Source of the DNA: Escherichia coli
GTDB lineage: Bacteria > Pseudomonadota > Gammaproteobacteria > Enterobacterales > Enterobacteriaceae
Length of the DNA stretch: 64,000 bases
Direction: 5' to 3' (one strand)
Assembly (NCBI RefSeq): GCF_050920415.1
Contig: NZ_CP169309.1
Below are positions 6,709 through 60,488 of this stretch, in pieces. Position 1 is the stretch's first letter. Each line of letters starts with the position of its first letter. The notes under the pieces were generated by a model. That model ran no database searches, was not told the DNA's origin, and saw only the letters and a program-made list of their open reading frames with translations. A program made the position numbers and the translations under genes.

Positions 6709-6721
6709 AATTCCAGAAAAG

Positions 6722-40922: not shown

Positions 40923-40960
40923 TTTTATTACCTCAAACCAGTATTAAGGCGATTTTAAAT

Positions 40961-41437
40961 TTAGTCAGGGATTTGTTCTTTTTGATCGCCGGGGACGTCC
41001 TGAATAAAAATATTCACACCGCGTTGTTTAATAAAGCGTAAGTCCGTGAGATCCTGGTCATCGACATAAACTTTACTGCTGATTTGCTTTTTACCTTCCG
41101 AGAAATGCATATTGCCGACGTTGACATCTTTCAGGTCAATGCCACCTTCTATCAATTTACGTACCGTTTGTGGCGTACGGCAAATCAGGAAGATCTTCTG
41201 ATGCGGTGCAGCTTTGCCGATGACGTTAATGGTTTTTTCGATAGTAAAGAAACGAATGCCAAAGCCGTAGGTTTCCGCGGTAATACCCATTAATTTCTGT
41301 TGAATATCATCGTTAGCGACAACATCATCCACGACCACCAGCAGATTTGCACCGATGGTAGATGTCCAGGTCACACCAACCTGACCGTGAACCAGACGGT
41401 TATCAATACGGGTTAAGAGAATATTTGGACTGCTCAT
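40961..41437 (-). CDS. agaB: PTS mannose-family IIB component
   Basis: 158-aa ORF with phosphohistidine motif RIDNRLVHGQV. Confidence 0.88.
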   Translation of the reverse strand: MSSPNILLTRIDNRLVHGQVGVTWTSTIGANLLVVVDDVVANDDIQQKLMGITAETYGFGIRFFTIEKTINVIGKAAPHQKIFLICRTPQTVRKLIEGGIDLKDVNVGNMHFSEGKKQISSKVYVDDQDLTDLRFIKQRGVNIFIQDVPGDQKEQIPD

Positions 41438-41603
41438 TGTGTAATCCTCACCATAAAGTTGAATAATATAATTTTTTTAAATATATTATTGTTGCGATAT
41501 TTTACTGATGTATTTATTAAGGTTTAGTTATCTCCTTTACCATTAAGGCACTCCCCGATATTAATCGGGAAGTACATTGGGATAAATCATAAAAAACTAA
41601 TGA

Positions 41604-42476
<873 letters not shown>

Positions 42477-43631
42477 TTATGCCTGCCACGGATGAATGAT
42501 TACGCCTTGCACCACGCGGTTAACGGTGCCGCTGGCTGATGGGGTATCCGGCGTATTGCCCATGTGCAGCGATTGCATCAGTGCAAATGTCTGGGCGTAC
42601 ATCAGGAAGCAAAATGCCTGCTCAACGTCGATAAAGTGACGGGACGGCGGCAGGATGATATGTGGACCGGCGGTAATAACGTCGTTGCTTTCCGCGGCGA
42701 TAGCGATTACGCGCATTGCCTGGTTGTCACGGCGGAGTTCTGCCAGCAGATCAAGATCATACTGACGCGTATAGGGGTGGCTGGAGACAAACACCACCAC
42801 CAGCGTTTCGTCATCGACCAGTGATTTAGGCCCATGACGGAATCCGGTCGGGGAATCATAAAAGGCCGCCAGTTTACCCGCCGTTAGTTCAAGCACTTTC
42901 AGCGCCGACTCGCGTGCTGCACCCTGTAATCCACCACTGCCGAGATAAACGATCCGTTTCCACGGTGCGTAACCAAACACACCTTCGCTGAAATCGCCCA
43001 GTGAGGTCAGGATCGCCTGGCAACGATCCGCTACGTCGCGGAAGGTCTGGCTATTGATTGTCTCAGGTGCGAAAACCGCGAGGCAGCTGGCCATCATAGT
43101 GGTAATGCTGCTTGTCATCGCAAAGCCGCGATCGTGCGTTTCTGCGGGCATCAGCAGGGCAAACGCGTTGTCGCTGTTGATCGCGTTTTGGTAAAGAGCG
43201 CCCGCTTCGTTGCAGGTGATCGGCAGGTGATAGCATTCCGGTACAAACTGATTCGCCAGTTCCACGGCGGCGACGCTTTCCGGGCTGTTGCCGGATCGAC
43301 CGAAGGAGATCATCAGCAGCGGATGAGCTGGATTCAGGTAGTCCATCGGATTGGTGACCAGATCGGTGGTTGGTACGGCGCTGAAGTTTTTACCGGTATG
43401 GCTGGCGAGCCACGGCGCGATGATGTCACCGATAAATGCCGAGGTTCCGGCTCCGGTCAGGATGATCCGCAGATTCTCTTTGCGCAGTAACGGTTCAAGG
43501 AAGTTATTGAGCGCGGAACGTAGCGCGTCGATGTTGGTGAGTGAACGGATCCATGCGCGAGGCTGATGGCGGATCTCTTCTTCAGTCCATGTGCCGGTGG
43601 TGGCGGCCGCTGGGGTGTAATTTTCTGGCAT
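42477..43631 (-). CDS. agaS: SIS-domain sugar isomerase/deaminase AgaS
   Basis: 384-aa ORF with tandem SIS domains. Confidence 0.9.
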   Translation of the reverse strand: MPENYTPAAATTGTWTEEEIRHQPRAWIRSLTNIDALRSALNNFLEPLLRKENLRIILTGAGTSAFIGDIIAPWLASHTGKNFSAVPTTDLVTNPMDYLNPAHPLLMISFGRSGNSPESVAAVELANQFVPECYHLPITCNEAGALYQNAINSDNAFALLMPAETHDRGFAMTSSITTMMASCLAVFAPETINSQTFRDVADRCQAILTSLGDFSEGVFGYAPWKRIVYLGSGGLQGAARESALKVLELTAGKLAAFYDSPTGFRHGPKSLVDDETLVVVFVSSHPYTRQYDLDLLAELRRDNQAMRVIAIAAESNDVITAGPHIILPPSRHFIDVEQAFCFLMYAQTFALMQSLHMGNTPDTPSASGTVNRVVQGVIIHPWQA

Positions 43632-43679
43632 AACTCAATCCTTAGTCTGATGAACTTGACTTCCGGCATTGCAGGTTTC

Positions 43680-43800
43680 GCTTGCCTTTCGTTTCATTTC
43701 ACTTGGTGATTCGTTTCGTTGATTAAAATCTATAGAAAAGAAATCGAAAGTTCAATGGAGAAAAAAGAAATAAAACGAAATTTGTGATCGTTGAAAGAAA
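43680..43800 (-). promoter_or_regulatory. agaS promoter region with AgaR (DeoR-family) operator repeats
   Basis: CTTTCGTTTCATTTCACTTGG plus further TTCGTTTCGTT and AAACGAAAT repeats, matching the published AgaR operator pattern TTTCRTTTYRTTTY. Confidence 0.6.
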
Positions 43801-43982
43801 AGACAAGGGAAGATTAAAGGATTGCGTGATGACGTCGCTATGTGTACCGATTGCTGGAAGCGGCGTACCGTTAGAGCGGATAAGACGCGCCAGCGTCGCA
43901 TTCGACACCACTGCACAGATTAAAACGAAAGAAAAAGAAAGGCCTTACGGGGGAAGTGAAGGCCCAATAAAGGAGCAAATCA

Positions 43983-45116
43983 TCAAAACGAAGCTAATTG
44001 ACCCTGAATCCAGATTTGTTGCACATGCAGTCCGCTATCCAGCGCAACGACGCTGGCGCGTTTGCCCGGTTTAAGTGATCCCAAAACACCATCAACACCC
44101 AGCATTCGCGCCGGATGCAGCGACGCCATATGGATGGCTTCCGCTGGCGTTACGCCCGTCAGCTCGACCATATTGCGAACAGCCGCATCAACAGACAGCG
44201 TACTGCCCGCCAGTCCACCGGACGCGGTACGGACAACGCCGTCGTGCATCTGCACCTCTTCACCACATAACGTATAGCGACCATCCGGCATCCCGGCTGC
44301 CTGCATCGCGTCGGTGATGAGCACGATTCTCTCTTTCGCACAGCAACAACACAGCGACATCGCCGCCGGATGTACATGATGACCATCGGCTATCAGTTCC
44401 AGCCAGGCGCGCTTGTCCGTTAATCCTGCGCCAACCATTCCCGGTTCGCGGTGATGTAAACCTGTCATCCCGTTATAGCAATGCACCAGGCCGTCGGCAC
44501 CAGCGTCAAACGCGGCGCGGGTTTGTTGCCAGGTTGCTGCGCTATGTCCCAGCATTACCCGCACGTTCTGCTGTTTAAGATGACGAATGGCTTGTAACGC
44601 GCCCGTTTTTTCCGGTGCCAGCGCCACCACGCGCAAGGTATGCCGTGAAACAGCAATCAATTGATCCAGCTCGGCAATTTCCAGCTCGCGAAACAGCTCC
44701 GGCGGATGTGCGCCTTTATTCTGCGGCGTGAAGTACGGTCCTTCGAGATAACTCCCCAGCACTTGCGCACCAGGTCCACCGCGCTGGCAGCGTAGAGCAA
44801 TACGTTCCAGCGCCGCATGAATGGTATTAAGCGGCGCGGTTACGGTAGTCGGCAACCAACTGCCGACACCTTCCCGTGCCTTGTGCATTGCCAGCTTGTC
44901 GAGCACATCCGGCGCGTCATCCATAACATCAACGCCCGCACCACCGTGTACATGGGTATCGATATAAGCGGGGCAGAGCAGTTCCGCATCGCGTTCAGCC
45001 ACGCCCACTGGAATCGGTTCGATTGCTGCAATTACACCGTCAGCAATATGCAACTGATGATCATCAAGCCAGCCCTCCTCAGTCAGCAGCCTTCTGGCGC
45101 GCAGAACGTGTGTCAT
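43983..45116 (-). CDS. agaA: N-acetylgalactosamine-6-phosphate deacetylase AgaA (full length)
   Basis: 377 aa from MTHVLRARRLL; NagA-like amidohydrolase. Confidence 0.9.
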   Translation of the reverse strand: MTHVLRARRLLTEEGWLDDHQLHIADGVIAAIEPIPVGVAERDAELLCPAYIDTHVHGGAGVDVMDDAPDVLDKLAMHKAREGVGSWLPTTVTAPLNTIHAALERIALRCQRGGPGAQVLGSYLEGPYFTPQNKGAHPPELFRELEIAELDQLIAVSRHTLRVVALAPEKTGALQAIRHLKQQNVRVMLGHSAATWQQTRAAFDAGADGLVHCYNGMTGLHHREPGMVGAGLTDKRAWLELIADGHHVHPAAMSLCCCCAKERIVLITDAMQAAGMPDGRYTLCGEEVQMHDGVVRTASGGLAGSTLSVDAAVRNMVELTGVTPAEAIHMASLHPARMLGVDGVLGSLKPGKRASVVALDSGLHVQQIWIQGQLASF

Positions 45117-45547
45117 ATTCCTTCCTCGACCGGACATTCTTCATGGCAGCGGCCTAACTCGTCCACCAGACTGGTCAGCCCACGGTGTCCACTCTCCAGC
45201 GCCTGTACACGGAATTCTTCACCGCTTAACCCTTCGCGCTCCAGCACCATTTCCAGTAACAGTTGCAAATTGGTGCCGGTGATCACTTCATAGCCCGGTT
45301 TTTGCATCGCCAGCGTTGAAGCCACGCGAAACGGTGTGCCGCCCAGCAAATCTGTCAGAAAAACAATGCCGTCTTCACAATCCAGTTTGGCAATGGCTTC
45401 TTCAAGCTGCGATGTAAGCAGCGCAGTGCTTGAGGTTTCCGGAAAATCAATGGCGATAAACTGCGACTGCTCGCCGAGGATTTGCTTCATTGCTTTTTCC
45501 ATGCCGCTGGCAAATCCGCCATGCCCTGTCAAAATAATACTTAACAT
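45113..45547 (-). CDS. agaF: PTS mannose-family IIA component
   Basis: 144-aa ORF MLSIILTGHGGFASGMEKAMKQILGEQ... Confidence 0.88.
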   Translation of the reverse strand: MLSIILTGHGGFASGMEKAMKQILGEQSQFIAIDFPETSSTALLTSQLEEAIAKLDCEDGIVFLTDLLGGTPFRVASTLAMQKPGYEVITGTNLQLLLEMVLEREGLSGEEFRVQALESGHRGLTSLVDELGRCHEECPVEEGI

Positions 45548-45564
45548 CTAATACCTCATTGTAT

Positions 45565-46449
45565 TTAAAGGAAATGACAGAATTTACCGACGATGCCAAG
45601 AACCACGGTAACCGCAATCAGGCGCAGCGGACTCCAGCCGCGGCGTACCAGCCAGAACATGGTCAGGGTGTAGACCAGCGGTAAGAAGGCAGGCATCAGT
45701 TTGTCGATAACGTCAGCCTGCAGCTTAACCACTGCGTCGCCCGCCGTGATTTCCAGCGTGGTGCTTAAACGAACATAGGTTGCCACCAGCGCGCCGATCA
45801 CCGTCATCCCAACGATAGACGCTGCATGGCCGACTTTTTTGGTATTCGCTTTAATGAGTGGGATCGCCGCCACGCCCATGCGGTAAGCATAATGCGCCAG
45901 ACCAAAACGCAGCCCCAGGTGTACCACGTTGAACAGCACAATAAAGACGACTGCGCCAAGAATAGAGCCTTGCAATGCCAGACTGGCACCAATCCCGCCA
46001 CAAATCGGCAGTAACGTTAGCCAGAACATGGCATCGCCAATCCCGCCGAGCGGCGCACCGACGGCAATTTTGGTGCTCTGAATACTGTTAACGTCCTGCT
46101 TAGAACGCTCCATCGCGAGGATAATGCCAATAACAAACGTCACCAGAAATGGATGGGTATTGAAGAAACCCATATGTCCCTTCATGGCGCGCGCCAGGTC
46201 GCGTTTATTAGTGTGGATCTTTTTCAGAGCAGGCAGCAGACCGTACAACCAGCCGGAAGCCTGCATACGCTCGTAGTTAAAAGACGCTTGTAACAGCATG
46301 GAACGCCAGGCGACGCGGTTGATATCTTTTTTTGTTAGCTCCGCGCCAATGCTCTGATCTTCGTATACGTTTTCATTGACGCCTGTCAGTAGTGTCTCTT
46401 CATTTTCGCTGACGTTCGGCAGGGTGGTTTGATTAGATGCCATCTTCAA
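45565..46449 (-). CDS. agaE: PTS mannose-family IID component (N-acetylgalactosamine-specific)
   Basis: about 292-aa ORF, paralogous to agaD. Confidence 0.88.
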   Translation of the reverse strand: MKMASNQTTLPNVSENEETLLTGVNENVYEDQSIGAELTKKDINRVAWRSMLLQASFNYERMQASGWLYGLLPALKKIHTNKRDLARAMKGHMGFFNTHPFLVTFVIGIILAMERSKQDVNSIQSTKIAVGAPLGGIGDAMFWLTLLPICGGIGASLALQGSILGAVVFIVLFNVVHLGLRFGLAHYAYRMGVAAIPLIKANTKKVGHAASIVGMTVIGALVATYVRLSTTLEITAGDAVVKLQADVIDKLMPAFLPLVYTLTMFWLVRRGWSPLRLIAVTVVLGIVGKFCHFL

Positions 46450-47212
46450 ATTCCTCTTTCTGTGCCGCAGGTTGAGTCGGTTCAGGAGATTTACGCAGCA
46501 GGTCGATCAGCGCCATCGCCAGCGCGGCGGCAGCAATAGCCAGCACCGGTAACTTGAGCCAGGCGGCGGCAACGAAGCCCAGGATGAAGTAGGGGATATA
46601 GACGTTTTTCATCATGATTTTCAGCAGCACGGCAAAACCGATTGCTGGCATGATGCCGCCCGCGACGCCAAGGCCGTCGATTAACCGTTGCGGCAGGACA
46701 TCAATGATGGTTTTTGCATGCTCCGCGCCGAAGTAGATAGGCAGGAAAGCGCAGAGAAAATAGAACGTGCCGAGTGCCAGCAATGCCAGATAGTTCACGC
46801 GTTCAATGCCGCGAGTATCGGCGTTCTCCGCCATCCGGTCGCAGCGGGACATCACGCCAGACATCACCGAGAACAGGAAGGTAATCCCCATCTGTACTGC
46901 GACAGCGAAAGGTACGGCGACACCGACCGCGACATCCGGTTTCACACCAGTAGTAATGGCAAATGCCGTGCCGACGATAGTTCCGATAATCACGTTAGGC
47001 GGCTGTGCGCCCGCCAGTGGTGCCAGCCCCATCCACACCAGTTCCAGCGTACCGCCGGTTAAAATACCGGTATGCAGATCGCCAAGCACCAACCCAACTA
47101 ACGGGCCGAGGACCACCGGGCGGTGCATATGGGTCAAGCCGTTAAACATATCCAGGCCAGCGATAAAGGCGATAATGCCCAACGCAAATGCCTGCAACAG
47201 ACTGATTTCCAT
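46433..47212 (-). CDS. agaW: PTS mannose-family IIC component (N-acetylgalactosamine-specific), full length
   Basis: 259-aa membrane ORF, paralogous to agaC. Confidence 0.88.
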   Translation of the reverse strand: MEISLLQAFALGIIAFIAGLDMFNGLTHMHRPVVLGPLVGLVLGDLHTGILTGGTLELVWMGLAPLAGAQPPNVIIGTIVGTAFAITTGVKPDVAVGVAVPFAVAVQMGITFLFSVMSGVMSRCDRMAENADTRGIERVNYLALLALGTFYFLCAFLPIYFGAEHAKTIIDVLPQRLIDGLGVAGGIMPAIGFAVLLKIMMKNVYIPYFILGFVAAAWLKLPVLAIAAAALAMALIDLLRKSPEPTQPAAQKEEFEDGI

Positions 47213-47222
47213 AATGAATCCC

Positions 47223-47696
47223 TCAAAGTAATTTAAAGAGGTCCACAGCAGGTTCTGTCGGAACGCCCTGAACGAAGCATTCCACCCCAGCGGCTTTCAG
47301 GCCGTTAAATGCCGCGATATCGCTCGCATCCACAGAAACCGTTTTGGCAATTTGCTGCTTGCCATTGGCATAGTGCATGTTGCCAACGTTAATGCGACTC
47401 ACCGGGACCCCACCTTTAACCAGCGTCAGGAAATCGGCAGGTGTTTTACAAACCAGCAGAATTTTCTGCCGATCGGCGGCGCGGTGGATGTTGTCGATCA
47501 CTTTTTGCAGCGTCCAGAAACGTACGGCGATCCCTTCTGCCAGTACCATTTCCATCAGGTTTTGTTGTACCGGATCTTCGGCAACCTCGTCATTGGCTAC
47601 CAGCACCAGATTTGCCCCCGCGAATCCGACCCACTGAACGCCGACCTGACCGTGAATCAAGCGTTCATCAATCCGGCTTAAAACAATATTTGGCAT
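47223..47696 (-). CDS. agaV: PTS mannose-family IIB component
   Basis: 157 aa from MPNIVLSRIDERLIHGQV. Confidence 0.88.
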   Translation of the reverse strand: MPNIVLSRIDERLIHGQVGVQWVGFAGANLVLVANDEVAEDPVQQNLMEMVLAEGIAVRFWTLQKVIDNIHRAADRQKILLVCKTPADFLTLVKGGVPVSRINVGNMHYANGKQQIAKTVSVDASDIAAFNGLKAAGVECFVQGVPTEPAVDLFKLL

Positions 47697-47718
47697 AGCG
47701 TGTTCCTCTTTGTTTTGC

Positions 47719-48999
47719 TTATTGGCCTTCACAGGCTGTGTGGTACTGCGCCAGGATGTCCTGAATATGGTTGATAATGAGTTCCCGTGGCGTTGGCTGC
47801 AGCTCGCCGGAGCGAACTTTCACGTATTGCAGCGGCAGGTACTGACTGATGAGCGGCAGCGGAATCGGTGAATCCGCCAGATTACGAACCAGATGAGCGA
47901 AAGCGTCATCAATCTGGCTGTCCGGCCAGTAATAGCGCACGCGATCCGAGTAGCTATAACCACGCGCCAGGCGACGTGCGTTGCCGTCACCGTGGTAGTG
48001 GCTTTGCCAGTATTCCGGGCGGTCGAGCATCACGTTTTCCAGTACCTGACGCAGACCGGAACAGGCTTTCGCTGGCACCAGTTCTTCTTCAATCGCTGCC
48101 AGTGAAAACAGTGCTTCACGCAGGGCGAAGGTCAGCGCTGGGCCAACTTTCAGAATGGAAAAGTGGTCAATCACCAGCTGGCGCAGCGATTGCGGCGTTT
48201 GATAATCGGTAGAGTGCGCTTCGAAAATCAGCGTTTCGTAGTTTTCGACCATCTGGCTTAAGGCGGTCGCTTTAGCTGGCTGATAATCAATAACGTTGGT
48301 GTGATCGAATTCGACGCCGGGTTGTACCACCAGAGCAATGATGCGTGGCCAGATGGCATTCAGACCTTGCTTTTCAAAGGCGTGACGATGGGCTTCCAGC
48401 GTGGCGCGGGCGGCATCCGGCGTGGTGACCGCCAGCTCGCTTAAGGTTTCATGCGCGCCGCCAGGTACCGGCACTTCGGTACCAATGACATAGACCAGAT
48501 CGGCTTCGCCAAAGTGTTCACGGCAGGTTTCTTCCGCGACTTTAGCCAGTCGGGCGGCGCGTTCAGCCACGATGTCATCGGTTAAGGGAACCGGATCGTC
48601 CTGACAGGACATGCTGCAATCAAGGTGAATTTTTTTGAATCCTGCCGCCACGTAGCTTTTAATCAAATCATCGGCATTGGCCATCGCCTGAGCTGCAGGC
48701 AGGTTTTGCCAGCGGTTTGGCCCCAGATGATCACCACCCAGAATCAACGCGTCTTGTGGGAAATTCAATGAGTCGGCGAGCTGACAAACAAAGCCGCGAA
48801 AATCGGCGGGTGTCATTCCGGTATAACCGCCGAACTGGTCCACCTGATTGGATGTCGCTTCAATCAGTAACGGTGTTTGGTTTGCACTGGCGTAGCGGAT
48901 TGCAGCTTCCAGCACCAGCGGGTGTGCGGAACAAACGGCATAAATCCCATTTGTTTTGCCCTCTTTGTGCTGCCTCACCATTTCTGTCAGATGTTTCAC
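47719..48999 (-). CDS. kbaZ: tagatose-bisphosphate aldolase non-catalytic subunit KbaZ (AgaZ)
   Basis: 426 aa from a GTG start ([28 protein letters not shown]...). Confidence 0.9.
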
Positions 49000-49029
49000 T
49001 TTCCTCTCCAGTTCAGATTGCTGCGATAT

Positions 49030-49247
49030 TAATCTTTCGTTTTGTTTCAGTTGATACTGCGTCATGGTGAGATAAAAATAAAACGAAAGATAATAGTTTT
49101 CTGATCTGATTCACAAAAGAAACATAATGAAAGTCACTGAAACGAGAGTAGCTTGCGTCAATGGGCAAGGTGGGCTTGCATTTGCTCAATAGAAAGGCGT
49201 TAATAGACAAAACGAAATGAAACGAAAGTTTTACGAAAGGACTTACT
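49030..49247. promoter_or_regulatory. divergent kbaZ / agaR control region with AgaR operator repeats
   Basis: CTTTCGTTTTGTTTCAG (49034-49050), AAAACGAAAG (49077-49089), AAAACGAAATGAAACGAAAGTTTTACGAAAGG (49208-49240). Confidence 0.65.
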
Positions 49248-50057
49248 ATGAGTAATACCGACGCTTCAGGCGAGAAGCGAGTGACAGGCACCAGCGAGCG
49301 ACGAGAACAAATCATTCAGCGCCTGCGACAGCAAGGGAGTGTGCAGGTTAACGATCTGTCGGCATTGTATGGCGTATCTACTGTGACGATCCGCAACGAT
49401 CTGGCGTTTCTGGAAAAGCAGGGGATCGCTGTGCGGGCCTATGGCGGCGCGTTGATCTGCGATAGCACGACGCCGTCAGTCGAGCCATCAGTGGAAGATA
49501 AAAGCGCGCTGAACACTGCGATGAAACGCAGCGTTGCGAAAGCTGCCGTTGAGTTGATTCAGCCAGGTCATCGGGTGATCCTCGATTCCGGGACCACCAC
49601 TTTTGAGATTGCTCGTCTGATGCGCAAGCACACTGACGTAATTGCGATGACCAATGGTATGAACGTAGCCAATGCACTGCTGGAAGCAGAAGGCGTTGAA
49701 CTTCTTATGACCGGCGGGCATCTGCGGCGTCAGTCGCAATCTTTTTACGGCGATCAGGCTGAACAATCGCTACAAAATTACCACTTTGATATGCTTTTTC
49801 TCGGCGTAGATGCGATCGATCTGGAGCGCGGCGTCAGCACGCATAATGAAGATGAAGCCCGTTTAAACCGTCGGATGTGCGAAGTTGCGGAACGGATCAT
49901 TGTGGTCACCGATTCCAGTAAGTTCAACCGTTCCAGTTTACATAAGATCATTGATACTCAACGTATCGACATGATCATTGTTGATGAAGGCATTCCTGCG
50001 GATAGTCTGGAAGGACTGCGAAAGGCTGGGGTTGAAGTGATTCTGGTCGGGGAGTGA
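49248..50057 (+). CDS. agaR: DeoR-family transcriptional repressor AgaR
   Basis: 269-aa ORF with N-terminal HTH and DeoR C-terminal domain. Confidence 0.92.
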
Positions 50058-50111
50058 GAAAGGGGGCCCGCTGGTCAACACCAATGTGTTCGGCGGGCAT
50101 TGTGAACACCA

Positions 50112-50576
50112 TCAATGGTTTTCTTCTGTCTCTTGGGTGAGGCTTTCCCAGCCGGCAGGAGGATGTCCTCTTTTTAACATTTTACTGAATACGGTATAGG
50201 CATCTGTTTTTTTACCGTAGGTGCGCAGCGTGTTTTCATCGTTCATCCATCCCAGAATGATGACTTTCTCTTTTTCACTGTAACGAAAGAAGAGACGATA
50301 GCGACCAGCACCAAATTTTACCCGTGACCAGTCTTTATTTTTCCCAGAGCCTAACGACTTGCCATGACGGAATGCCGGTGATGATGGATTGACCGTGATA
50401 TGCTCCTCAATCACTTTATGGACCACCGCCAATAACTTTGTGGCAGCTTTTCTCTGATAATTTTCAGGATCTTTTCCCTTTAATGCCTCGACTTCGGCAA
50501 CTAAAGCATCGTAGGTTTCCTGAAAACAGGGATGAGCATATAGCGCCCAACCATTAACCCTTTGTGGAAAATCCAT
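50112..50576 (-). CDS. yhaV: type II toxin YhaV (ribosome-dependent mRNA interferase)
   Basis: 154-aa ORF MDFPQRVNGWALYAHPCFQETYDALVAEVEALKGKDPEN... Confidence 0.9.
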   Translation of the reverse strand: MDFPQRVNGWALYAHPCFQETYDALVAEVEALKGKDPENYQRKAATKLLAVVHKVIEEHITVNPSSPAFRHGKSLGSGKNKDWSRVKFGAGRYRLFFRYSEKEKVIILGWMNDENTLRTYGKKTDAYTVFSKMLKRGHPPAGWESLTQETEENH

Positions 50577-50911
50577 TATTCGTCGTCGCCAATCTCATCG
50601 TCAATGTTGACGTCCATGCCAGCGACAAGTTTCTTTCCTTGTTGAATGTCGAATGGACGAGTTTTTTGCGGGTTATTCTGGATATCTGCATCCAGAAAAC
50701 GCAAAAATGCATTCATAGTATGATCCTCCTGTTCATCTCCCAGTCGGCACATAAATACTTGCCCACCAGGCAGAATTTCGTAATGAATGCTGTCCAGGCC
50801 TGGCTTCAGTTTTAAGGCCTCACGCACTGGCGCGGGGATAGTTGTTTGTCCGCGTATCGTGACCTTTGATTCAGTGGTCAGTACAGCGTTAGAGCGAGCA
50901 TTAGCGGGCAT
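50576..50911 (-). CDS. prlF: antitoxin PrlF (SohA), AbrB/SpoVT-type
   Basis: 111-aa ORF with acidic C-terminus; stop overlaps yhaV start by 1 nt. Confidence 0.9.
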   Translation of the reverse strand: MPANARSNAVLTTESKVTIRGQTTIPAPVREALKLKPGLDSIHYEILPGGQVFMCRLGDEQEDHTMNAFLRFLDADIQNNPQKTRPFDIQQGKKLVAGMDVNIDDEIGDDE

Positions 50912-51059
50912 TATTTACTGTCCTTTTACAGCCTGTTTTCTGCTCAAATTATAAGCTTGAACTAAGGTAATGCAAATGCATTATTAATGGATGTGTGGAC
51001 TTTAAACAATAAAAACATGGCACTAAGGCCATGTTTTGCGAGGGACGTTCCAAAAGAAA

Positions 51060-52631
51060 TCAAGTCACCGGTGCCGGGTTAAACACCGCCAGCTGGTTAT
51101 GCAGTCCCCATTGATCTGAGAAGGTTTTCTTCTTCCCGCTGGCGACGTCGAGAATAAAATGGAACAATTTCCAGCCCACCTCTTCAATAGTTTCTTCGCC
51201 GGTAGCGATGGTGCCCGCATTAATATCCATTAAATCAAACCAGCGGTTCGCCAGCTCGGTGCGGGTCGCCATTTTAATGACGGGTACCGCCATCAGGCCG
51301 TACGGCGTACCACGGCCGGTCGTAAACACTTGCACGGTAATCCCCGAAGCCACCTGTTGCGTGCCACAGACAAAATCGCTGGCTGGCGTCGCAGCGTAAA
51401 TTAATCCGCGTTTAGTCGGGCGTTGACCGGGCGACAGCACTTCAACAATTGCACTTTTACCCGATTTAGCAATGGAGCCGAGCGCTTTCTCCACCACATT
51501 TGCCAGACCGCCTTTCTTGTTGCCCGGCGAAGGGTTGGCGCTGCGGTCGGTTTTTCCCATATTGAGATAGTTATCGTACCACTCCATCTCCTCCAGCAGC
51601 CGTTTGCCGACCTCTTCGTTCACTGCGCGCGGCGTCAGCAGATGGATCGCGTCACGCACTTCTGTGACTTCCGAGAACATCACCGTTGCACCGCAGCGCA
51701 CCAGTAGATCAGATGCATAACCCACGGCTGGATTTGCCGTTACGCCAGAAAACGCATCGCTGCCACCGCACTGCATGCCGACAACCAGTTCTGAAGCCGG
51801 ACAGGTTTCTCGCTGACGTTGATTCAGTTTTTGTAGATGGCGTTCGGCGACCTGCAAAATATCCTCGACCATGGACTGAAAACCGACATGCTTTTCATCC
51901 TGCAAACTGACAATGCTGGCGCTTTCTACTGGAATAGCTTGCACATCATCCGTTCCAGTCAGCAGGCGTTCAGGCTGCAACTTTTCACAACCCAGACCAA
52001 TCACCATTACTTCGCCGCCAAAGTTAGGGTTCAGCGAAATATTGTGAATGGTACGAATAGGCACAACTGCCGCCGGTGCGTTAATCGCCACGCCACAACC
52101 GTACAAATGATTCAGCCCCACCACGCCATCGACGTTCGGGTATTTCGGTAGCAGATCGCGTTCAATGATTTTTACTACATAGTCCACCACGCCTGCCACA
52201 CAGTGGACGCTGGTGGTGATGCCGAGCAGGTTTTTGGTGCCCACGCTGCCATCGGCATTGCGATAGCCCTCAAAGGTGTATCCTTCCAGTGGCGGTAAGG
52301 GGGCCGGGACTTTAGTTGCCAGTGGCAGCGTGTGTAACGGTGGCGCTTCCGGTAGTACAACCATTGATTCGTCGATCCAGCTTCCGCGTGGGATTGCGCG
52401 CACGGCGTAACCAATCACTTCACCATAACGAATAATTTCACCATTAGCCGGAATGTCCAGCAATGCGACTTTATGCCCCTGGGGAATATGTTCAATTAAT
52501 TCCAGCCCATCCGGAAAACGCGTTCCTGCTTTCAGGCCATTATCATTAACAATAATTGCCACATTATCTGTGTCGTGAACTTTTATATAAAACGCAGTTG
52601 GCGTTTCTTGTCTGATTTCGATGTTGGCCAT
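51060..52631 (-). CDS. garD: galactarate dehydratase
   Basis: 523-aa [40 protein letters not shown]... Confidence 0.93.
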
Positions 52632-53005
52632 TGTGCAATATTCTCCAGCCAGGGGTTATTAAAATGAGGACCTGGTCTCATTTAAAAATAAATGACTTCA
52701 TTGGGTGAAATAAGAATGTCAGGAGTTTAAACGCAGAAATGTGATCAATGTCAATCATTTCAGGGATTGCAGTGCCGCCCGGCAGGGTAAAGAGCAAATC
52801 TGTGCTTTAGCGCGCAACCTTATGTGCATATGCTCAAAATAATATTTAAATAGTAATAATTAAATTAGCATTTGCACAATGATTATTATTCTCTCGCTGC
52901 TTATACTAATTCCTGAGTTCATTGTCGTAACGGCATAAATAAAACTCATAAATAACACCTTCCCCATAATAATAAAAATCAGCATAAGTACCCGAGGTAA
53001 ATAAA

Positions 53006-54340
53006 ATGATTCTGGACACCGTTGACGTAAAAAAGAAAGGCGTGCATACCCGCTATTTAATATTACTGATTATTTTTATTGTTACCGCCGTTAACTACGC
53101 CGATCGTGCAACGCTGTCTATTGCTGGTACCGAAGTGGCAAAAGAGTTGCAGTTAAGTGCGGTTTCGATGGGTTACATCTTTTCTGCTTTTGGCTGGGCC
53201 TACTTGCTGATGCAAATCCCCGGCGGCTGGCTGCTTGATAAGTTTGGCTCGAAAAAAGTTTACACCTACAGCCTCTTTTTCTGGTCGCTATTCACCTTCC
53301 TGCAAGGCTTTGTTGATATGTTCCCGCTGGCCTGGGCAGGGATCTCCATGTTCTTTATGCGCTTTATGCTCGGCTTCTCGGAAGCGCCATCATTCCCGGC
53401 GAACGCCCGTATTGTCGCCGCCTGGTTCCCGACGAAAGAACGTGGTACTGCCTCCGCCATCTTTAACTCGGCGCAATATTTCTCGCTGGCGCTCTTTTCG
53501 CCTCTGCTTGGCTGGCTGACTTTCGCCTGGGGATGGGAGCACGTCTTTACCGTTATGGGGGTGATTGGTTTTGTGCTGACGGCGCTGTGGATCAAGTTGA
53601 TTCATAACCCGACAGATCACCCACGTATGTCTGCGGAAGAGCTGAAGTTTATATCTGAAAATGGCGCGGTGGTCGATATGGACCACAAAAAGCCGGGCAG
53701 CGCGGCAGCAAGCGGTCCCAAACTGCATTACATCAAGCAATTGCTCTCTAACCGCATGATGTTGGGCGTATTTTTCGGACAATATTTTATCAACACCATC
53801 ACCTGGTTCTTCCTCACCTGGTTCCCGATTTATCTGGTGCAGGAAAAAGGCATGTCGATTCTGAAAGTGGGTCTGGTCGCCTCGATTCCGGCACTGTGTG
53901 GTTTTGCGGGCGGCGTGCTGGGAGGTATCTTCTCGGATTATCTGATCAAACGCGGTTTGTCCCTGACCCTGGCACGTAAGCTACCGATTGTGCTGGGAAT
54001 GTTGCTGGCTTCCACCATCATCTTATGTAACTACACCAATAACACCACGCTGGTGGTCATGCTGATGGCGCTGGCCTTCTTTGGCAAAGGATTTGGCGCG
54101 CTGGGCTGGCCGGTGATTTCTGACACCGCGCCGAAAGAGATAGTTGGCCTCTGCGGCGGCGTCTTTAACGTCTTTGGAAATGTTGCCTCCATTGTCACTC
54201 CACTGGTGATTGGCTACCTGGTAAGTGAACTGAACTCCTTCAATGCAGCACTGGTTTTCGTGGGATGTTCAGCGCTGATGGCGATGGTCTGCTACCTCTT
54301 CGTAGTTGGCGACATTAAACGTATGGAATTGCAGAAATAA
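53006..54340 (+). CDS. garP: galactarate/glucarate MFS transporter
   Basis: 444-aa MFS ORF. Confidence 0.9.
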   Translation: MILDTVDVKKKGVHTRYLILLIIFIVTAVNYADRATLSIAGTEVAKELQLSAVSMGYIFSAFGWAYLLMQIPGGWLLDKFGSKKVYTYSLFFWSLFTFLQGFVDMFPLAWAGISMFFMRFMLGFSEAPSFPANARIVAAWFPTKERGTASAIFNSAQYFSLALFSPLLGWLTFAWGWEHVFTVMGVIGFVLTALWIKLIHNPTDHPRMSAEELKFISENGAVVDMDHKKPGSAAASGPKLHYIKQLLSNRMMLGVFFGQYFINTITWFFLTWFPIYLVQEKGMSILKVGLVASIPALCGFAGGVLGGIFSDYLIKRGLSLTLARKLPIVLGMLLASTIILCNYTNNTTLVVMLMALAFFGKGFGALGWPVISDTAPKEIVGLCGGVFNVFGNVASIVTPLVIGYLVSELNSFNAALVFVGCSALMAMVCYLFVVGDIKRMELQK

Positions 54341-54355
54341 GCAAAGGTATAAGCG

Positions 54356-55126
54356 ATGAATAACGATGTTTTCCCGAATAAATTCAAAGCCGCACTGGCT
54401 GCGAAACAGGTACAAATTGGTTGCTGGTCAGCACTCTCTAACCCGATTAGCACTGAAGTTCTTGGTTTGGCTGGGTTTGACTGGCTGGTGCTGGATGGCG
54501 AACATGCGCCAAACGATATCTCCACGTTTATTCCGCAGTTAATGGCCCTGAAAGGCAGCGCCAGCGCGCCAGTAGTGCGAGTGCCGACCAACGAGCCGGT
54601 AATTATAAAGCGTCTTCTGGATATCGGTTTCTATAACTTCCTGATTCCTTTTGTAGAAACAAAAGAGGAAGCAGAGCAGGCGGTGGCATCAACCCGTTAT
54701 CCACCGGAAGGCATTCGCGGCGTCTCCGTTTCTCACCGCGCCAATATGTTTGGCACCGTGGCGGATTATTTCGCTCAGTCGAACAAGAACATCACCATTC
54801 TGGTCCAGATAGAAAGTCAGCAGGGCGTAGATAACGTCGATGCCATTGCCGCTACCGAAGGTGTAGACGGTATCTTCGTCGGCCCCAGCGATCTGGCTGC
54901 GGCATTAGGCCATCTCGGCAATGCCTCGCACCCGGATGTACAAAAAGCAATCCAGCATATTTTTAACCGTGCCAGTGCGCACGGCAAACCCAGCGGTATC
55001 CTCGCGCCGGTCGAAGCCGATGCGCGTCGTTATCTGGAATGGGGCGCGACGTTTGTGGCTGTCGGCAGCGATCTCGGCGTCTTCCGCTCTGCCACTCAGA
55101 AACTGGCTGATACCTTTAAAAAATAA
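54356..55126 (+). CDS. garL: 5-keto-4-deoxy-D-glucarate aldolase
   Basis: 256-aa [36 protein letters not shown]... Confidence 0.93.
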
Positions 55127-55161
55127 CCACCACCGCAACAAGAGAGATGATTGATATGACT

Positions 55162-56046
55162 ATGAAAGTTGGTTTTATTGGCCTGGGGATTATGGGTAAA
55201 CCAATGAGTAAAAACCTTCTGAAAGCAGGTTACTCGCTGGTGGTTGCTGACCGTAACCCAGAAGCTATTGCTGACGTGATTGCAGCAGGTGCAGAAACAG
55301 CTTCTACGGCTAAAGCGATCGCTGAACAGTGCGACGTCATCATAACCATGCTGCCAAACTCCCCTCATGTGAAAGAGGTGGCGCTGGGTGAGAATGGCAT
55401 TATTGAAGGCGCGAAGCCAGGTACGGTATTGATCGATATGAGTTCTATTGCACCGCTGGCAAGCCGTGAAATAAGCGAAGCGCTGAAAGCGAAAGGCATT
55501 GATATGCTGGACGCCCCGGTGAGCGGCGGTGAACCGAAAGCCATCGACGGTACGCTGTCAGTGATGGTGGGCGGCGACAAGGCTATTTTCGACAAATACT
55601 ATGATTTGATGAAAGCGATGGCGGGTTCCGTGGTGCATACCGGGGAAATCGGTGCAGGTAACGTCACCAAACTGGCAAATCAGGTCATTGTGGCGCTGAA
55701 TATTGCCGCGATGTCAGAAGCGTTAACGCTGGCAACCAAAGCGGGCGTTAACCCGGATCTGGTGTATCAGGCAATTCGCGGTGGACTGGCGGGCAGTACC
55801 GTGCTGGATGCCAAAGCGCCGATGGTGATGGACCGCAACTTCAAGCCGGGCTTCCGTATTGATCTGCATATTAAGGATCTGGCAAATGCGCTGGATACTT
55901 CCCACGGCGTCGGCGCGCAACTGCCGCTCACAGCTGCGGTTATGGAGATGATGCAGGCACTGCGTGCCGATGGTTTAGGAACGGCGGATCATAGCGCCCT
56001 GGCGTGCTACTACGAAAAACTGGCGAAAGTCGAAGTTACTCGCTAA
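55162..56046 (+). CDS. garR: tartronate semialdehyde reductase
   Basis: 294 aa from MTMKVGFIGLGIMGKPM (NAD-binding GxGxxG). Confidence 0.93.
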   Translation: MKVGFIGLGIMGKPMSKNLLKAGYSLVVADRNPEAIADVIAAGAETASTAKAIAEQCDVIITMLPNSPHVKEVALGENGIIEGAKPGTVLIDMSSIAPLASREISEALKAKGIDMLDAPVSGGEPKAIDGTLSVMVGGDKAIFDKYYDLMKAMAGSVVHTGEIGAGNVTKLANQVIVALNIAAMSEALTLATKAGVNPDLVYQAIRGGLAGSTVLDAKAPMVMDRNFKPGFRIDLHIKDLANALDTSHGVGAQLPLTAAVMEMMQALRADGLGTADHSALACYYEKLAKVEVTR

Positions 56047-57320: not shown

Positions 57321-57697
<377 letters not shown>

Positions 57698-57704
57698 CTT
57701 CAAC

Positions 57705-57742
57705 GAAAACCCGCCAGTGCAAACTGGCGGGTTTTTGCTTTT
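57705..57742 (+). terminator. rnpB rho-independent terminator
   Basis: aaacccgccagtgcaaactggcgggtttttgctttt. Confidence 0.85.
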
Positions 57743-57968
57743 GAGGAGGGTGGTCGGAAAGATGAACGTCTTATCTGGCCTACAAAACAACGAAAATTTA
57801 ATATATTGCACAGAGGAAATGTAGGCCTGATAAGCGTAGCGCCTCAGGCAATTTTGTGTTTATCATCAGTCTCGAACCTGCTTCGGCAAGCTTTTACTTT
57901 TGGTGCAGACGGAAAGATGAACGAGTATCTAAGCTATTAATAATAGACTTTGCAAGAAATCATTACAT

Positions 57969-59138
57969 TTATATTTCATTTAAAAGATCGTAATCATACG
58001 TATATTCTTTGCTAATAAAACGACACTCGTTGAAGCTAAATTCATCGTCTGAAAAGGAATTGTCAACAGAATCTCTCTCTTCCTCCAGGCTATTATCTGA
58101 AAGCAAGTCGTTTGAGTTAGTGTAATCTAGGTTGTAATCGACAGTATAATTAATTTCTGGATCGGTTTGGTAATCATTTTTTTTGACGCAATCATATTCT
58201 TCAATAATTTTGTCGATATAATCATATGCTTTTTCTAATGAGAAGTTTTTCATCTCTGGTAATTTAACTTTGCTCAAATAATTATTAATTTTTGAGGAAT
58301 TTTTATATATGCTTTTTGTTAATTCTTTTTCTAATTTGTCTGTTATATTTGCTGTTGGTATGGATTTTATAATCGCATATCTCATGATTTTTAATTGATC
58401 TTCGGTTAAATCTCCAAGCTCATTTAAACAACTTTCGACAAAGTTGATTTTTTCTCTGGAATAATCATCGCTGATACTTGTTAACGCTGGGGTGATTTTT
58501 AATAAAGAATTCCATGAGATAGTACCATTGTGTGTCGAACGCATAAAATTTATATTGTACATATTGGTTTTAGTAAACTTTGTTGCAAACAATGTAAAGG
58601 GATCTAAAGTCGCGTAAGCCATATGTTTATTTGAAAAATCATAACCAGTTAAATCGACGTTATGCAAGTCCAGATAGGATAAATCTATTACGTCGCCTGC
58701 TCCAGAGCTAAAGATTACATTTAGTCTTCTGATTTCATTATAAATTTCCTTTAATGAACAATTTATGTTCATGATGTCTGTTGAAATTTTTTTGTTATTT
58801 AACGGTTCACAAATTATAAGTTCGCAAGTATTGTCTGATCGTTGCGTTATTTGGGCATTATAACCTAAAAAGTCTATGCGAAGAGACGAGTTATTATAAA
58901 GTATTACATTTTTTAAGTATGCTAATTCTTGTTGAAAATCACCATCGATAATACATGTTCCACCTGGTTGCAACGCGCAGATTAACGTGAGCATTTGATT
59001 AGAAGTCTGTTTTAGTTTTACTACACCTGGTGCTAGTGCTTTGAGGTCATTTATTATGGGGGTTTCAGGAATGTCATTCATTTTTATACGTACTAAATCA
59101 TTACCTAAGTCATTACCTATTGATGAAACCGGGAACAT
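57969..59138 (-). CDS. yhaC: uncharacterised protein YhaC (pentapeptide-repeat region, acidic C-terminus), AT-rich
   Basis: 389-aa ORF MFPVSSIGNDLGNDLVRIKMNDIPETPIINDLKA...; codon usage atypical for the neighbourhood. Confidence 0.75.
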   Translation of the reverse strand: MFPVSSIGNDLGNDLVRIKMNDIPETPIINDLKALAPGVVKLKQTSNQMLTLICALQPGGTCIIDGDFQQELAYLKNVILYNNSSLRIDFLGYNAQITQRSDNTCELIICEPLNNKKISTDIMNINCSLKEIYNEIRRLNVIFSSGAGDVIDLSYLDLHNVDLTGYDFSNKHMAYATLDPFTLFATKFTKTNMYNINFMRSTHNGTISWNSLLKITPALTSISDDYSREKINFVESCLNELGDLTEDQLKIMRYAIIKSIPTANITDKLEKELTKSIYKNSSKINNYLSKVKLPEMKNFSLEKAYDYIDKIIEEYDCVKKNDYQTDPEINYTVDYNLDYTNSNDLLSDNSLEEERDSVDNSFSDDEFSFNECRFISKEYTYDYDLLNEI

Positions 59139-59159
59139 TATTTTATCCTTTTTAAATAA

Positions 59160-59720
59160 TCAATGAGAATCATGATTAAAATGATCTGGTGAAAAAAAGA
59201 GAATTTGCCAACAATCTGAAACATTGTCAGTTTTATTAAAATGATTAAATTCCGTTAAGATAACTTCTTTTTGCGTGAACTTTGCGCAAAACTTAAAAAT
59301 TGTCTCCTTGATACACTCCAGATCTTTTCTATTGATGGCTGAACAAGTACATTTTTCGCCAAAAGGTGAAAATGTGCCTACATCTAAAGTTTGTATTATA
59401 TAATCATCATTTACTCCTGTAGAAATATCTATGATGAATGGACTTCTATTTTCCGGTTGGATTCGGATCATTACAGAAGAAACATCACCTTTATAGACAT
59501 TCAATGCAGTAATCGCAGATAATATTCTCCGCAATTCATTGCTTATGCTGTAAATTTCATTAACGTCATTTGTCGATATAATCTCGGCAAATTTTATTTT
59601 TACCTTCCAATAATCAATGTTTCTATTATAAGTGTTAACAGTTTCGTACATTGGTGGTATCGAAGGGGGTAAAAAATGTGAAACCGAATAACCTTTCATT
59701 GATGCCTGCCTTGTCTTCAT
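59160..59720 (-). CDS. yhaB: uncharacterised protein YhaB, AT-rich
   Basis: about 186-aa ORF (track ORF 189 aa); start assigned to MKTRQASMKGYSV. Confidence 0.65.
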   Translation of the reverse strand: MKTRQASMKGYSVSHFLPPSIPPMYETVNTYNRNIDYWKVKIKFAEIISTNDVNEIYSISNELRRILSAITALNVYKGDVSSVMIRIQPENRSPFIIDISTGVNDDYIIQTLDVGTFSPFGEKCTCSAINRKDLECIKETIFKFCAKFTQKEVILTEFNHFNKTDNVSDCWQILFFSPDHFNHDSH

Positions 59721-59937
59721 GACAAACAATAATCAATGCTTATTTTCCTTGCACGGTTCGCTCACAACTATCAAAAAACGCTCAATTACCCGGCATTACA
59801 GTCAACGAAGCAAAATTCTGTGGTCTACAACGATGTAAAGCACAACGAAAATCCTCCTTGTTCTCTTATTCTGATCGTATAGCGATGAACATCAATTATT
59901 CGTTTTGTGATCCTCAACACAAAATGCTATTTAGTAA

Positions 59938-60312
59938 CTATGGTGACAGTAGAAACGAGGGGAAACGATTGCATTCACAAAATGACGTCCTGTAAGAAGG
60001 GTGAAAGTTGATGTTAATCAATTGTTCGAGATGATCAATATCTGTATTCGAAATTTTAAAACATTGATAAAATAAATGTTTGCCCTCCAACAAATAGCGA
60101 GAAAAAATGTGACGTGCCGCATTATTTATCGCTGAAAATGATTTATTTATAATAAAATTTGATAACTTGCTCATAAAATTTAACTCAAAATTTGCCTGGT
60201 AATTATCCGCTAATTGCTTGAAATATGGTCGCGGCTGCTTTTTTTTATTAACCACATAACGAATGATGTTATCGCCATAAAATATGGTTATCCCTGTCAT
60301 TTTTTTTGACAA
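59938..60312 (-). CDS. tdcR: putative tdc operon regulator TdcR-like small protein
   Basis: 124-aa AT-rich ORF divergent from tdcA at the position where tdcR is expected; exact start uncertain. Confidence 0.55.
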   Translation of the reverse strand: MSKKMTGITIFYGDNIIRYVVNKKKQPRPYFKQLADNYQANFELNFMSKLSNFIINKSFSAINNAARHIFSRYLLEGKHLFYQCFKISNTDIDHLEQLININFHPSYRTSFCECNRFPSFLLSP

Positions 60313-60488
60313 AAATCAGGGTTTATGCTGATTTATATACTTTAACTTATTGATATATAAAAGAATTTAATTGATACAGTGATATCCAGAAAAGTATTGA
60401 AAGTTAATTTGTGAGTGGTCGCACATATCCTGTTCATTTCATTTTGATACACTTCATGCCGTCAATGAGGTTATTAACGTAGGTAGTT

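Follow-up and report, generated by a model that had tools for sequence, protein, structure and literature searches.

A divergent allele of the orphan genes yhaB and yhaC occupies the AT-rich islet between rnpB and tdcA (positions 57745-60488) in the 64,000-nt stretch of Escherichia coli DNA analyzed here, which we call the window. We hold with moderate confidence an account in which the islet is built of two layers, yhaBC is represented by a rare and ancient allele, the two genes are constrained yet dispensable, and YhaC and YhaB form a binding module. The first layer (~59,890-60,488) consists of tdcR together with a CRP box and the control region of tdc, and is common to E. ruysiae and a cryptic-clade Escherichia. 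The second layer (~57,900-59,890) is the probable orphan operon yhaB-yhaC, bordered by the rnpB terminator on one side and the CRP box on the other, and has been detected only in E. coli and Shigella. Our data show the anatomy of the islet, its distribution, the age of the alleles and the constraint on both genes; H-NS binding comes from published K-12 work, and the binding role of the proteins is proposed. By analogy with K-12, the AT-rich DNA of the islet probably carries a coat of H-NS and is not expressed under laboratory conditions. The locus itself is a known one in an unusual and unnamed allele, and nothing in it defines a new kind of system, although its evolution is striking for two cytoplasmic orphan genes.

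The islet has low GC content and consists of two layers

The GC content of 57745-60488 is 0.324, compared with 0.515 for the remaining window (50.7% for the whole window), and a scan of the whole window placed the 2,744-bp stretch with the lowest GC at a start of 57757 (0.323), which bears out the sharp compositional drop between rnpB and tdcA that the initial annotation had described. Along the profile, GC is 0.51-0.62 in garK and rnpB, drops to 0.27-0.37 at ~57800-60450 and returns to 0.42-0.48 in tdcA and tdcB. By feature, GC is 0.311 in yhaC, 0.317 in yhaB, 0.325 in tdcR and 0.306 in the tdcR-tdcA spacer, and the GC content at third codon positions is 0.287 in yhaC and 0.261 in yhaB. The three open reading frames (ORFs) that had been noted are real, and all of them lie on the minus strand. 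The order and strands of rnpB-yhaC-yhaB-tdcR-tdcA are the same in the window, K-12, O157, A31 and EC361.

We examined how far each part of the islet extends beyond E. coli. TdcR is present also in E. ruysiae and in Escherichia sp. E4930 (cryptic clade), where tdcR is followed by ~765 bp and then garK, and BLAST detected no trace of yhaB or yhaC at this site in either genome. In both, homology to E. coli sets in again at the CRP box, ~64 bp past the end of tdcR. For YhaC and YhaB, full-length relatives among 5.8 billion clusters were E. coli and Shigella proteins only, and an exhaustive hidden Markov model search of 1.84 billion representatives returned one full-length cluster. A scan of GTDB species representatives found no relatives of yhaBC in other species, with the limit that it used two peptide patterns and could miss a very divergent orthologue, and a search of phages found no homologue. 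The matches labeled as plasmids were three chromosome-sized records and one 354-kb record annotated as "YhaC family protein". Deletion-type E. coli, such as an O2:K1:H7 strain, retain three pieces of the two genes (the final 44 nt of yhaC, 63 nt from within it and ~100 nt from the start of yhaB), which indicates secondary loss; the state in E. ruysiae and E4930 looks like a clean empty site. Taken together, these distributions show that the islet is composed of two layers, both restricted to Escherichia, and that the CRP-box block marks the inner edge of the older one.

These results bear on the proposal of the initial annotation that the islet was acquired horizontally long ago. The confinement of yhaBC to E. 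coli and Shigella and the empty site in relatives support the proposal for these two genes, and a foreign origin of yhaBC fits the data. What does not stand is the idea of one acquisition, since there are two layers. The position next to an RNA gene had also been taken as an argument, which by itself does not point to site-specific integration, and we found no signature of mobility: the islet and the E. ruysiae junction contain no integrase, insertion sequence (IS) element, flanking direct repeats or target duplication, and only chance-level short repeats. Compared with the H-NS-silenced xenogeneic islets and promoter islands of K-12, the locus shares AT-richness, a narrow distribution and an empty site in a relative, but it has no integrase, tRNA-type attachment site or direct repeats, and promoter-like sites are not enriched in it.

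The yhaBC haplotype is rare and is carried by a deep lineage

To determine how common this form of the islet is, we compared the yhaC-yhaB segment with 5,426 complete E. coli genomes. The allele was present at an identity of at least 98.8% in 18 of them, the next best match was 81.8% identical, and K-12 was 79.3% identical. Other full-length yhaC-yhaB alleles were found in ~4,300 genomes, and ~1,086 (~20%) contained remnants only. In a 100-bp sliding comparison, the flanks were 96-100% identical and the islet 62-92% identical, with sharp borders at ~57700 and ~60400 and the minimum in the 3' end of yhaC. The nucleotide divergence of the islet haplotype is 16-23%, compared with a background of 3-5%. 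The gene order is that of K-12, as had been noted, but the conclusion drawn from it, that the islet is not new to this strain, was not borne out in that form, because the sequence is a rare and highly divergent haplotype.

The source strain is a member of a deep, rare E. coli lineage. Per kb, the identity of window positions 19000-64000 to K-12 is 93.5-98.8%, with a synonymous divergence (dS) of ~0.13 in the flanks, and only 13 of the 5,426 genomes are more than 96.6% identical to the window over 36000-56000. The carriers checked all share flanks that are ~99% identical on both sides, which shows that the haplotype is inherited with its lineage. For the same reason, spread of the haplotype by recombination into unrelated backgrounds was rejected for those carriers. 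Some carriers are missing among the best upstream matches because their gene content upstream of garD is different.

Divergence between yhaBC alleles is old

We next compared divergence in the islet with that of its flanks, for which dS was pooled over 13 genes (window versus K-12 or a carrier) or 8 genes (E. coli versus E. ruysiae). Between the window and other alleles, dS is 0.60-0.65 and nonsynonymous divergence (dN) 0.19-0.20 in yhaC, and dS is 0.44-0.52 and dN 0.12 in yhaB; in the same comparisons, dS is 0.12-0.13 in garK and 0.07-0.10 in tdcA. The ratio of islet dS to flank dS is 4.7 for the window versus K-12 and 0.9 for the window versus the carrier 2013C-4282, and the latter pair shows 11 synonymous differences where ~60 would be expected at a 4.7-fold rate. 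A ratio of 0.9 within the carrier lineage indicates that the local clock is normal and that the split between the alleles is deep. Furthermore, flank dS between E. coli and E. ruysiae (0.37-0.40) is below the dS between yhaBC haplotypes. We conclude that the yhaBC alleles are ancient and not fast-mutating. They would be polymorphisms maintained over a long time or, alternatively, replacements whose donor has not been sampled.

Comparisons among other strains gave evidence of exchange. EC361 and A31 have a flank dS of 0-0.004 yet differ at a proportion of 0.41 of synonymous sites in the 3' third of yhaC, and this combination of identical flanks and a divergent segment indicates allele exchange rather than a faster clock. 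The YhaC proteins P0007 and P0021 are mosaics. The tail segment of K-12 forms a continuum of 88.7-100% identity across genomes, from which the 18 carriers stand out at 60-80%. Together, these patterns point to clear shuffling of alleles among the common yhaC types. The hsd, rfb and fliC loci are hyper-polymorphic in E. coli and have old allele classes; the yhaBC locus is like them in its sharp divergence borders within conserved flanks, in allele classes older than the surrounding genome and in its mosaics, and unlike them in that it encodes small cytoplasmic orphan proteins for which neither surface exposure nor a restriction function is evident.

Selection was assessed by region. In yhaBC, dN/dS is low in the folded parts (0.15-0.25) and higher in the acidic tail of YhaC (~0.6) and in the first 45 residues (0.55-0.67), which indicates purifying selection combined with a fast-changing tail. 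The low ratio in the folded parts shows that YhaC and YhaB are real, constrained proteins that are functional when present, and the deletion of yhaBC in ~20% of genomes indicates that the genes are dispensable. In a published survey, yhaC is among the 14 strongest signals of positive selection in E. coli (PMC9110714).

YhaC contains a short pentapeptide-repeat run and is probably co-transcribed with YhaB

Residues 1-389 of YhaC align to positions 1-395 of the 395 positions of NCBIfam NF007262 (PRK09716, an equivalog model; E 5.1e-175), with a score of 582.1 bits. This score is below the curated cut-off of 765, which accounts for the RefSeq label "hypothetical protein" on both yhaBC products. 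By its alignment, yhaC in the window is a divergent allele of the same gene and not an equivalog by the NCBI rule. YhaC is 66% identical to common YhaC, its identity to proteins named YhaC is 59-67% with 100% of the query aligned, and YhaB is 77% identical to common YhaB. The K-12 locus (yhaB-yhaC-tdcR, b3119-b3121; NF007262; PF27690) has the same position and order (garK-rnpB-yhaC-yhaB-tdcR-tdcA), low GC, CRP and FNR boxes, and full-length homology of all three products; it differs in the protein identities just given, in a nucleotide identity of 79% over yhaC-yhaB, in a YhaC that is 6 residues longer with a different acidic tail, in a TdcR that is 6 residues shorter, and in the number of rnpB terminator units (3.5 tandem copies in K-12, one in the window).

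The initial annotation had reported no recognizable catalytic motifs in the three ORFs, and we likewise found no catalytic domain, but YhaC does have a recognizable motif, a pentapeptide-repeat run. Its residues 151-200 can be read as 10 pentads in a row, each centered on L, F or M (IDLSY LDLHN VDLTG YDFSN KHMAY ATLDP FTLFA TKFTK TNMYN INFMR). The distant matches of the YhaC profile (E 4e-9 to 1e-3) are all confined to residues ~140-215, and each of the eight that were checked is a pentapeptide-repeat protein, all but three of them long multi-repeat proteins. YhaC itself matches the Pfam models Pentapeptide_4 (E 0.77) and Pentapeptide (E 7.4) and the PDB entry 2j8k weakly. Based on what is known of the family, these pentads would make ~2.5 turns of a quadrilateral beta-helix. 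YhaC resembles pentapeptide-repeat proteins (PF00805/PF13599; HetL, Np275/276, Qnr, MfpA, PipB/PipB2 and the SopA N-terminal domain) in its A(D/N)LXX-type pentads and in reciprocal profile matches, but it has only ~10-15 pentads (2.5-4 turns), is otherwise unrelated to them and approaches the NCBIfam cut-off of none of these families. The repeat run covers only ~50-75 of its 389 residues.

The acidic, Tyr- and Asp-rich C-terminus that had been described for YhaC was confirmed and corresponds to residues 322-389, whereas the Asn/Asp-rich N-terminal repeat exists only as a GNDLGNDL duplication that is specific to this allele. The tail shows the highest divergence of the whole locus (nucleotide identity of 62-68% at 58000-58199), and it ends in a segment, Y379-I389, that is invariant across alleles (Y-T-Y-x-Y-D-L-L-N-x-I-COOH). 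YhaC has no transmembrane or hydrophobic segment and no signal peptide. Within the YhaC profile, residues 33-142 (~58713-59042) weakly match the N-domain of methylenetetrahydrofolate dehydrogenase (PDB 5zf1, E 0.004), which is the sole non-repeat match and is probably due to chance.

YhaB has a strongly conserved core (residues 26-121, dN/dS 0.15) and a variable, frameshift-prone C-terminus. Precomputed matches to Pfam PF27690 exist for a 99% identical cluster (P0072) and for all YhaB relatives; in our own scan of YhaB, PF27690 was absent from the results of the Pfam copy searched, and no NCBIfam model matched. A gap of 21 bp separates yhaB from yhaC, which follows it in the same orientation, and the two genes are therefore probably a bicistronic operon. 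The ATG of yhaC has an AGGA Shine-Dalgarno sequence ahead of it, and we found no convincing terminator between the islet genes. In the literature, yhaB-yhaC has been classed as a young two-gene operon (PMC12218254).

Searches of Pfam, NCBIfam, PADLOC and PHROGs assigned no functional or catalytic family to YhaC or YhaB, in agreement with the lack of catalytic motifs that had been noted from the sequence alone. With PADLOC-DB v2, none of YhaC, YhaB and TdcR matched a family even at E up to 1. Sequence and profile searches of PDB yielded chance-level matches only (e.g., the FolD N-domain at E 0.004, a lincosamide nucleotidyltransferase at E 0.09 and weak pentapeptide proteins), structure prediction failed for both proteins so that no fold was assigned, and literature searches by locus tag were uninformative (Z4464 is tdcG).

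The older layer contains conserved regulatory DNA and a tdcR frame of doubtful constraint

TdcR is 78 residues long in the window and 72 in K-12, with stop codons at different positions, and the reading frame is open upstream in both (an in-frame extension to 114 residues in K-12, and to 124 residues from a TTG in the window). Between the window and other E. coli, tdcR has a dS of 0.076 and a dN of 0.063-0.084 (dN/dS 0.85-1.08); among other E. coli, dS is 0 and dN is 0.006-0.023; and relative to E. ruysiae, dS is 0.14-0.19 and dN is 0.11-0.14 (0.14 for both in the pair with K-12). For genes that neighbor tdcR, dN/dS is below 0.1. Because dN is close to dS in every comparison, it is doubtful that the tdcR ORF is constrained as a protein, and it may not be. 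We did not find purifying selection on TdcR as a protein (dN/dS ~1), with the limited power of a gene of 72 codons.

Noncoding parts of the same layer are strongly conserved. The 39-nt CRP-box block is invariant in six E. coli haplotypes with variable flanks, and its core is kept in E. ruysiae and E4930. A CRP footprint has been reported at this box in K-12 (PMC12871828), and the block could possibly play a role in tdcR or tdc control. The predicted FNR site within tdcR is a perfect consensus in the window and has one mismatch at the homologous K-12 position by alignment; this K-12 site was detected by FNR chromatin immunoprecipitation (ChIP), as a target listed next to yhaB (PMC1802558). When the haplotypes are aligned across the tdcR-tdcA region, columns 1-110 and 165-260 are near-invariant.

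The probable silencing by H-NS that the initial annotation suggested can be compared with published K-12 data. Table 1 of PMC3661553 lists two H-NS-bound promoter islands at the locus, the tdcA/tdcR spacer (code "K") and 706 bp inside yhaC (code "A"), and every ChIP study cited there found H-NS on the K-12 counterpart. The K-12 promoter islands at this position are also predicted to be foreign by several methods (PMC3661553). These data place binding in the tdcA/tdcR spacer and in yhaC, and they are for the K-12 allele only.

Evaluation of the binding-module account and its alternatives

Based on these findings, we propose that YhaC would be a soluble, acidic, non-enzymatic binding protein, made of an N-terminal alpha/beta region, a pentapeptide beta-helix of ~2.5 turns, a helical region and a hypervariable acidic tail that ends in an invariant C-terminal docking peptide. 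It would work with YhaB, with which it would be co-transcribed and has co-diverged. The age and number of the alleles suggest that yhaBC could meet a partner that itself changes, for example a phage, a host factor or a system for secretion or competition. We advance tentatively a conflict interpretation, in which YhaC would act with YhaB as a binding or adaptor protein without enzymatic activity, and the interface would be subject to diversifying or balancing pressure. A more specific form of this idea seems unlikely to us: that yhaBC is a long-term balanced polymorphism older than the split of E. coli and E. ruysiae, kept by frequency-dependent selection, in which YhaC is a pentapeptide-repeat adaptor that contacts a partner from a phage, the host or a secretion system through its tail and C-terminal peptide, at a conflict interface.

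Several observations weigh against our account. For YhaB and YhaC, no functional evidence of any kind exists. The published positive-selection signal of yhaC may be inflated by recombination, the whole-gene pairwise dN/dS is ~0.3, and pervasive positive selection is not shown. The haplotype follows a deep lineage, and it is rare in part because that lineage is rare. Frameshifted YhaB C-termini, one strain with a yhaC pseudogene and the deletion form in ~20% of genomes all speak for dispensability. When YhaC is scanned alone, the thresholds of Pfam PF00805 and PF13599 are not reached, and its repeat segment is too short to act as a DNA mimic of the Qnr/MfpA type. AlphaFold2 models were unusable (pLDDT 34.8 for YhaC from an 18-sequence alignment and 37.2 for YhaB from 7 sequences), a result of the shallow alignments that orphan proteins provide, and Foldseek comparisons of these weak models with PDB, which gave nothing at E <=0.001 and TM-scores <=0.23, were disregarded. 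With respect to expression, promoter-like sites are not enriched in this allele (8 found, compared with 13.7 +/- 4.3 in shuffles). The CRP box was considered as a promoter element of yhaB and dropped, as it is equally conserved at the empty site of E. ruysiae; its retention where yhaBC is missing assigns it to the older layer and removes it as evidence for a yhaB promoter.

Among the alternatives, we considered whether yhaBC is a conflict module in a stricter sense, i.e., a phage defense or anti-defense system or a toxin-immunity pair, in which the YhaC tail and beta-helix would either imitate nucleic acid or attach to a protein of a phage or the host, and the diversity of alleles would result from an arms race. 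Pentapeptide-repeat proteins include DNA mimics such as Qnr and MfpA, and the two-gene AT-rich cassette, the strongly acidic tail (net charge -17), the presence/absence polymorphism, the ancient, numerous and recombining alleles, and the reported selection on yhaC (PMC9110714) speak for such a module. However, no PADLOC family matches the three proteins at the permissive threshold given above, and no meaningful PHROG match was obtained. Qnr and MfpA have ~8-10 beta-helix coils and model cut-offs of 240-500 bits, and no Qnr or MfpA model matched YhaC at E up to 1, whose ~2.5 turns are far shorter. We also found no nuclease, NTPase, transmembrane or other effector domain, and whole-gene dN/dS is below 1. 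We regard this alternative as improbable.

A second alternative attributes the divergence to a deep lineage combined with faster mutation or drift in an AT-rich, poorly expressed and H-NS-bound islet, such that the alleles would be nothing special. The background of the window is indeed already far from K-12 (93.5-98.8% identity per kb, flank dS ~0.13), the 18 carriers appear to be one lineage with 99% identical flanks, yhaC dS is 2-5 times flank dS among the common alleles as well, and the dN/dS of ~0.6 in the tail reflects relaxed constraint there. A faster clock is nevertheless difficult to reconcile with the ratio of 0.9 in the carrier lineage and its 11 rather than ~60 synonymous differences, with the divergent yhaC 3' third of EC361 and A31 between identical flanks, and with an inter-haplotype dS of 0.52-0.65 that exceeds the 0.37-0.40 of neighboring genes between E. 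coli and E. ruysiae. This combination of results makes the alternative quite improbable in our assessment.

It is also conceivable that YhaC is a cryptic type III secretion effector like PipB or PipB2, with YhaB as its chaperone, delivered by the injectisome of the locus of enterocyte effacement (LEE), by ETT2 or by another one. The yhaBC locus resembles many effector loci in its low GC, H-NS binding and allelic diversity, in a Ser/Asn-rich N-terminus that lacks a signal peptide, and in having a small partner gene upstream. Moreover, the PipB model matches YhaC residues 151-202 at its positions 159-210 (E 0.015), such that the repeats start at a similar place, and the PipB/PipB2 and SopA-type models score strongly on the pentapeptide proteins that the YhaC profile matches. 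The match to PipB (NF011744) reaches only 14.4 bits against a cut-off of 274 and covers the repeat segment alone, PipB2 (NF011743) gave no match, and there is no homology outside the YhaC repeats. YhaB shows no similarity to any chaperone family and, with a pI of 5.7 and 179 residues, is not clearly chaperone-like; the locus is also present in K-12 and thousands of strains. We consider an effector role very improbable.

We give equally little weight to the view that the islet is a decaying, functionless remnant of an old acquisition that persists because H-NS silencing makes the operon nearly neutral: deletion remnants in ~20% of genomes, IS1 and IS621 events at the locus, frameshifted YhaB C-termini, a yhaC pseudogene, the H-NS coating of the K-12 locus and the fact that no phenotype is known would fit, but both ORFs are intact in haplotypes at a dS of ~0.6, the folded regions have a dN/dS of 0.15-0.25, conservation is strong in YhaB residues 26-121 and in the final 11 residues of YhaC, and neutral decay over such a time depth would have destroyed the reading frames.

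Our preferred account of a two-layer islet with an ancient and constrained binding module is significant because yhaB and yhaC are among the remaining genes without a function in the best-studied bacterium, and it offers handles on them, namely allele classes that seem older than a species split and yet constrained, an empty site in a sister species, and a pentapeptide beta-helix with an invariant tail peptide. The analysis also exposes an annotation gap, in which divergent alleles that fall under a family cut-off are labeled "hypothetical", and it casts doubt on a role of tdcR as a protein. Should all of these points fail, what is left is a known, silent and dispensable islet in an unusual lineage.

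Features of the islet and additional observations

The positions of the features discussed above are compiled in Table 1.

Table 1. Features of the rnpB-tdcA islet and its borders (window coordinates)
Feature	Position	Strand	Description
rnpB (RNase P RNA)	57321-57697	+	Rfam RF00010, 319 bits; left border of islet
rnpB terminator hairpin	57695-57746	+	Inverted repeat; single copy here
rnpB-yhaC spacer	57698-57968		271 bp; GC 0.417
yhaC, divergent allele	57969-59138	-	ORF; 389 aa, 44.6 kDa, pI 4.6; RefSeq "hypothetical protein"
YhaC acidic Tyr-rich tail	57972-58175	-	aa 322-389; D 18%, E 12%, Y 10%; net charge -17
YhaC pentapeptide-repeat segment	58539-58688	-	aa 151-200; wider repeat-like region aa ~140-215
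yhaB, divergent allele	59160-59699	-	ORF and RefSeq CDS; 179 aa, pI 5.7
CRP-box block	59893-59931		Invariant 39 nt just downstream of tdcR; core TGTGAtcctcaACACA at 59906-59921
tdcR	59938-60174	-	NCBIfam NF008507, 146.9 bits (cut-off 100), model 1-72 of 72; RefSeq CDS
FNR consensus TTGAT-N4-ATCAA	60008-60021		Predicted site, perfect, inside tdcR (TTGATGTTAATCAA)
Divergent tdcR-tdcA control region	60175-60488		AT-rich, GC 0.306; mostly highly conserved
tdcA start	60489		Flanking gene

At the left border, rnpB is 98-100% identical to that of other E. coli, and identity collapses directly downstream. The tandem copies found there in K-12 are of a 113-bp unit that consists of the rnpB 3' end and terminator, and Tandem Repeats Finder, which reported them, detected no such array in the window. 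The rnpB-yhaC spacer varies in length by strain, with examples of 106 (O157), 227, 271 (window), 394 and 613 bp (K-12), and in the window it contains a putative GC-rich palindrome of the repetitive extragenic palindrome type near 57826-57850, as judged by reading the sequence. A permissive Rfam scan of the islet revealed no RNA family other than rnpB.

Two strains carry IS elements at the locus. In 23CRST030, IS1A adjoins rnpB, and tdcR, tdcA and most of tdcB are lost, with a 3' fragment of tdcB left. In KSC207, an IS621 element lies between yhaC and yhaB. The scan of GTDB representatives also returned two matches that proved to be E. coli DNA mis-binned in metagenome-assembled genomes of Collinsella (96% identical to A31) and Bacteroides (99.6% identical to K-12), with both contigs matching along their entire length, which indicates contamination of public assemblies of this type.

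Elsewhere in the window, 500-bp GC drops below 0.40 at 6671-8098, 41024-41941 and 52389-53335, the last of which lies upstream of garD, where K-12 and another carrier have the prlF-yhaV toxin-antitoxin pair. Upstream of garD, the carriers R32_14_1F and EC42405 have a chb-like phosphotransferase system/6-phospho-beta-glucosidase cluster, and the window and K-12 have prlF-yhaV and aga genes. The garD gene (kb 51001-52000) differs between the window and the carrier 2013C-4282 with a dS of 0.12 and 96.4% identity for this kb, compared with a dS of 0.005-0.03 for its neighbors, and this difference is probably a recombination patch within the lineage.

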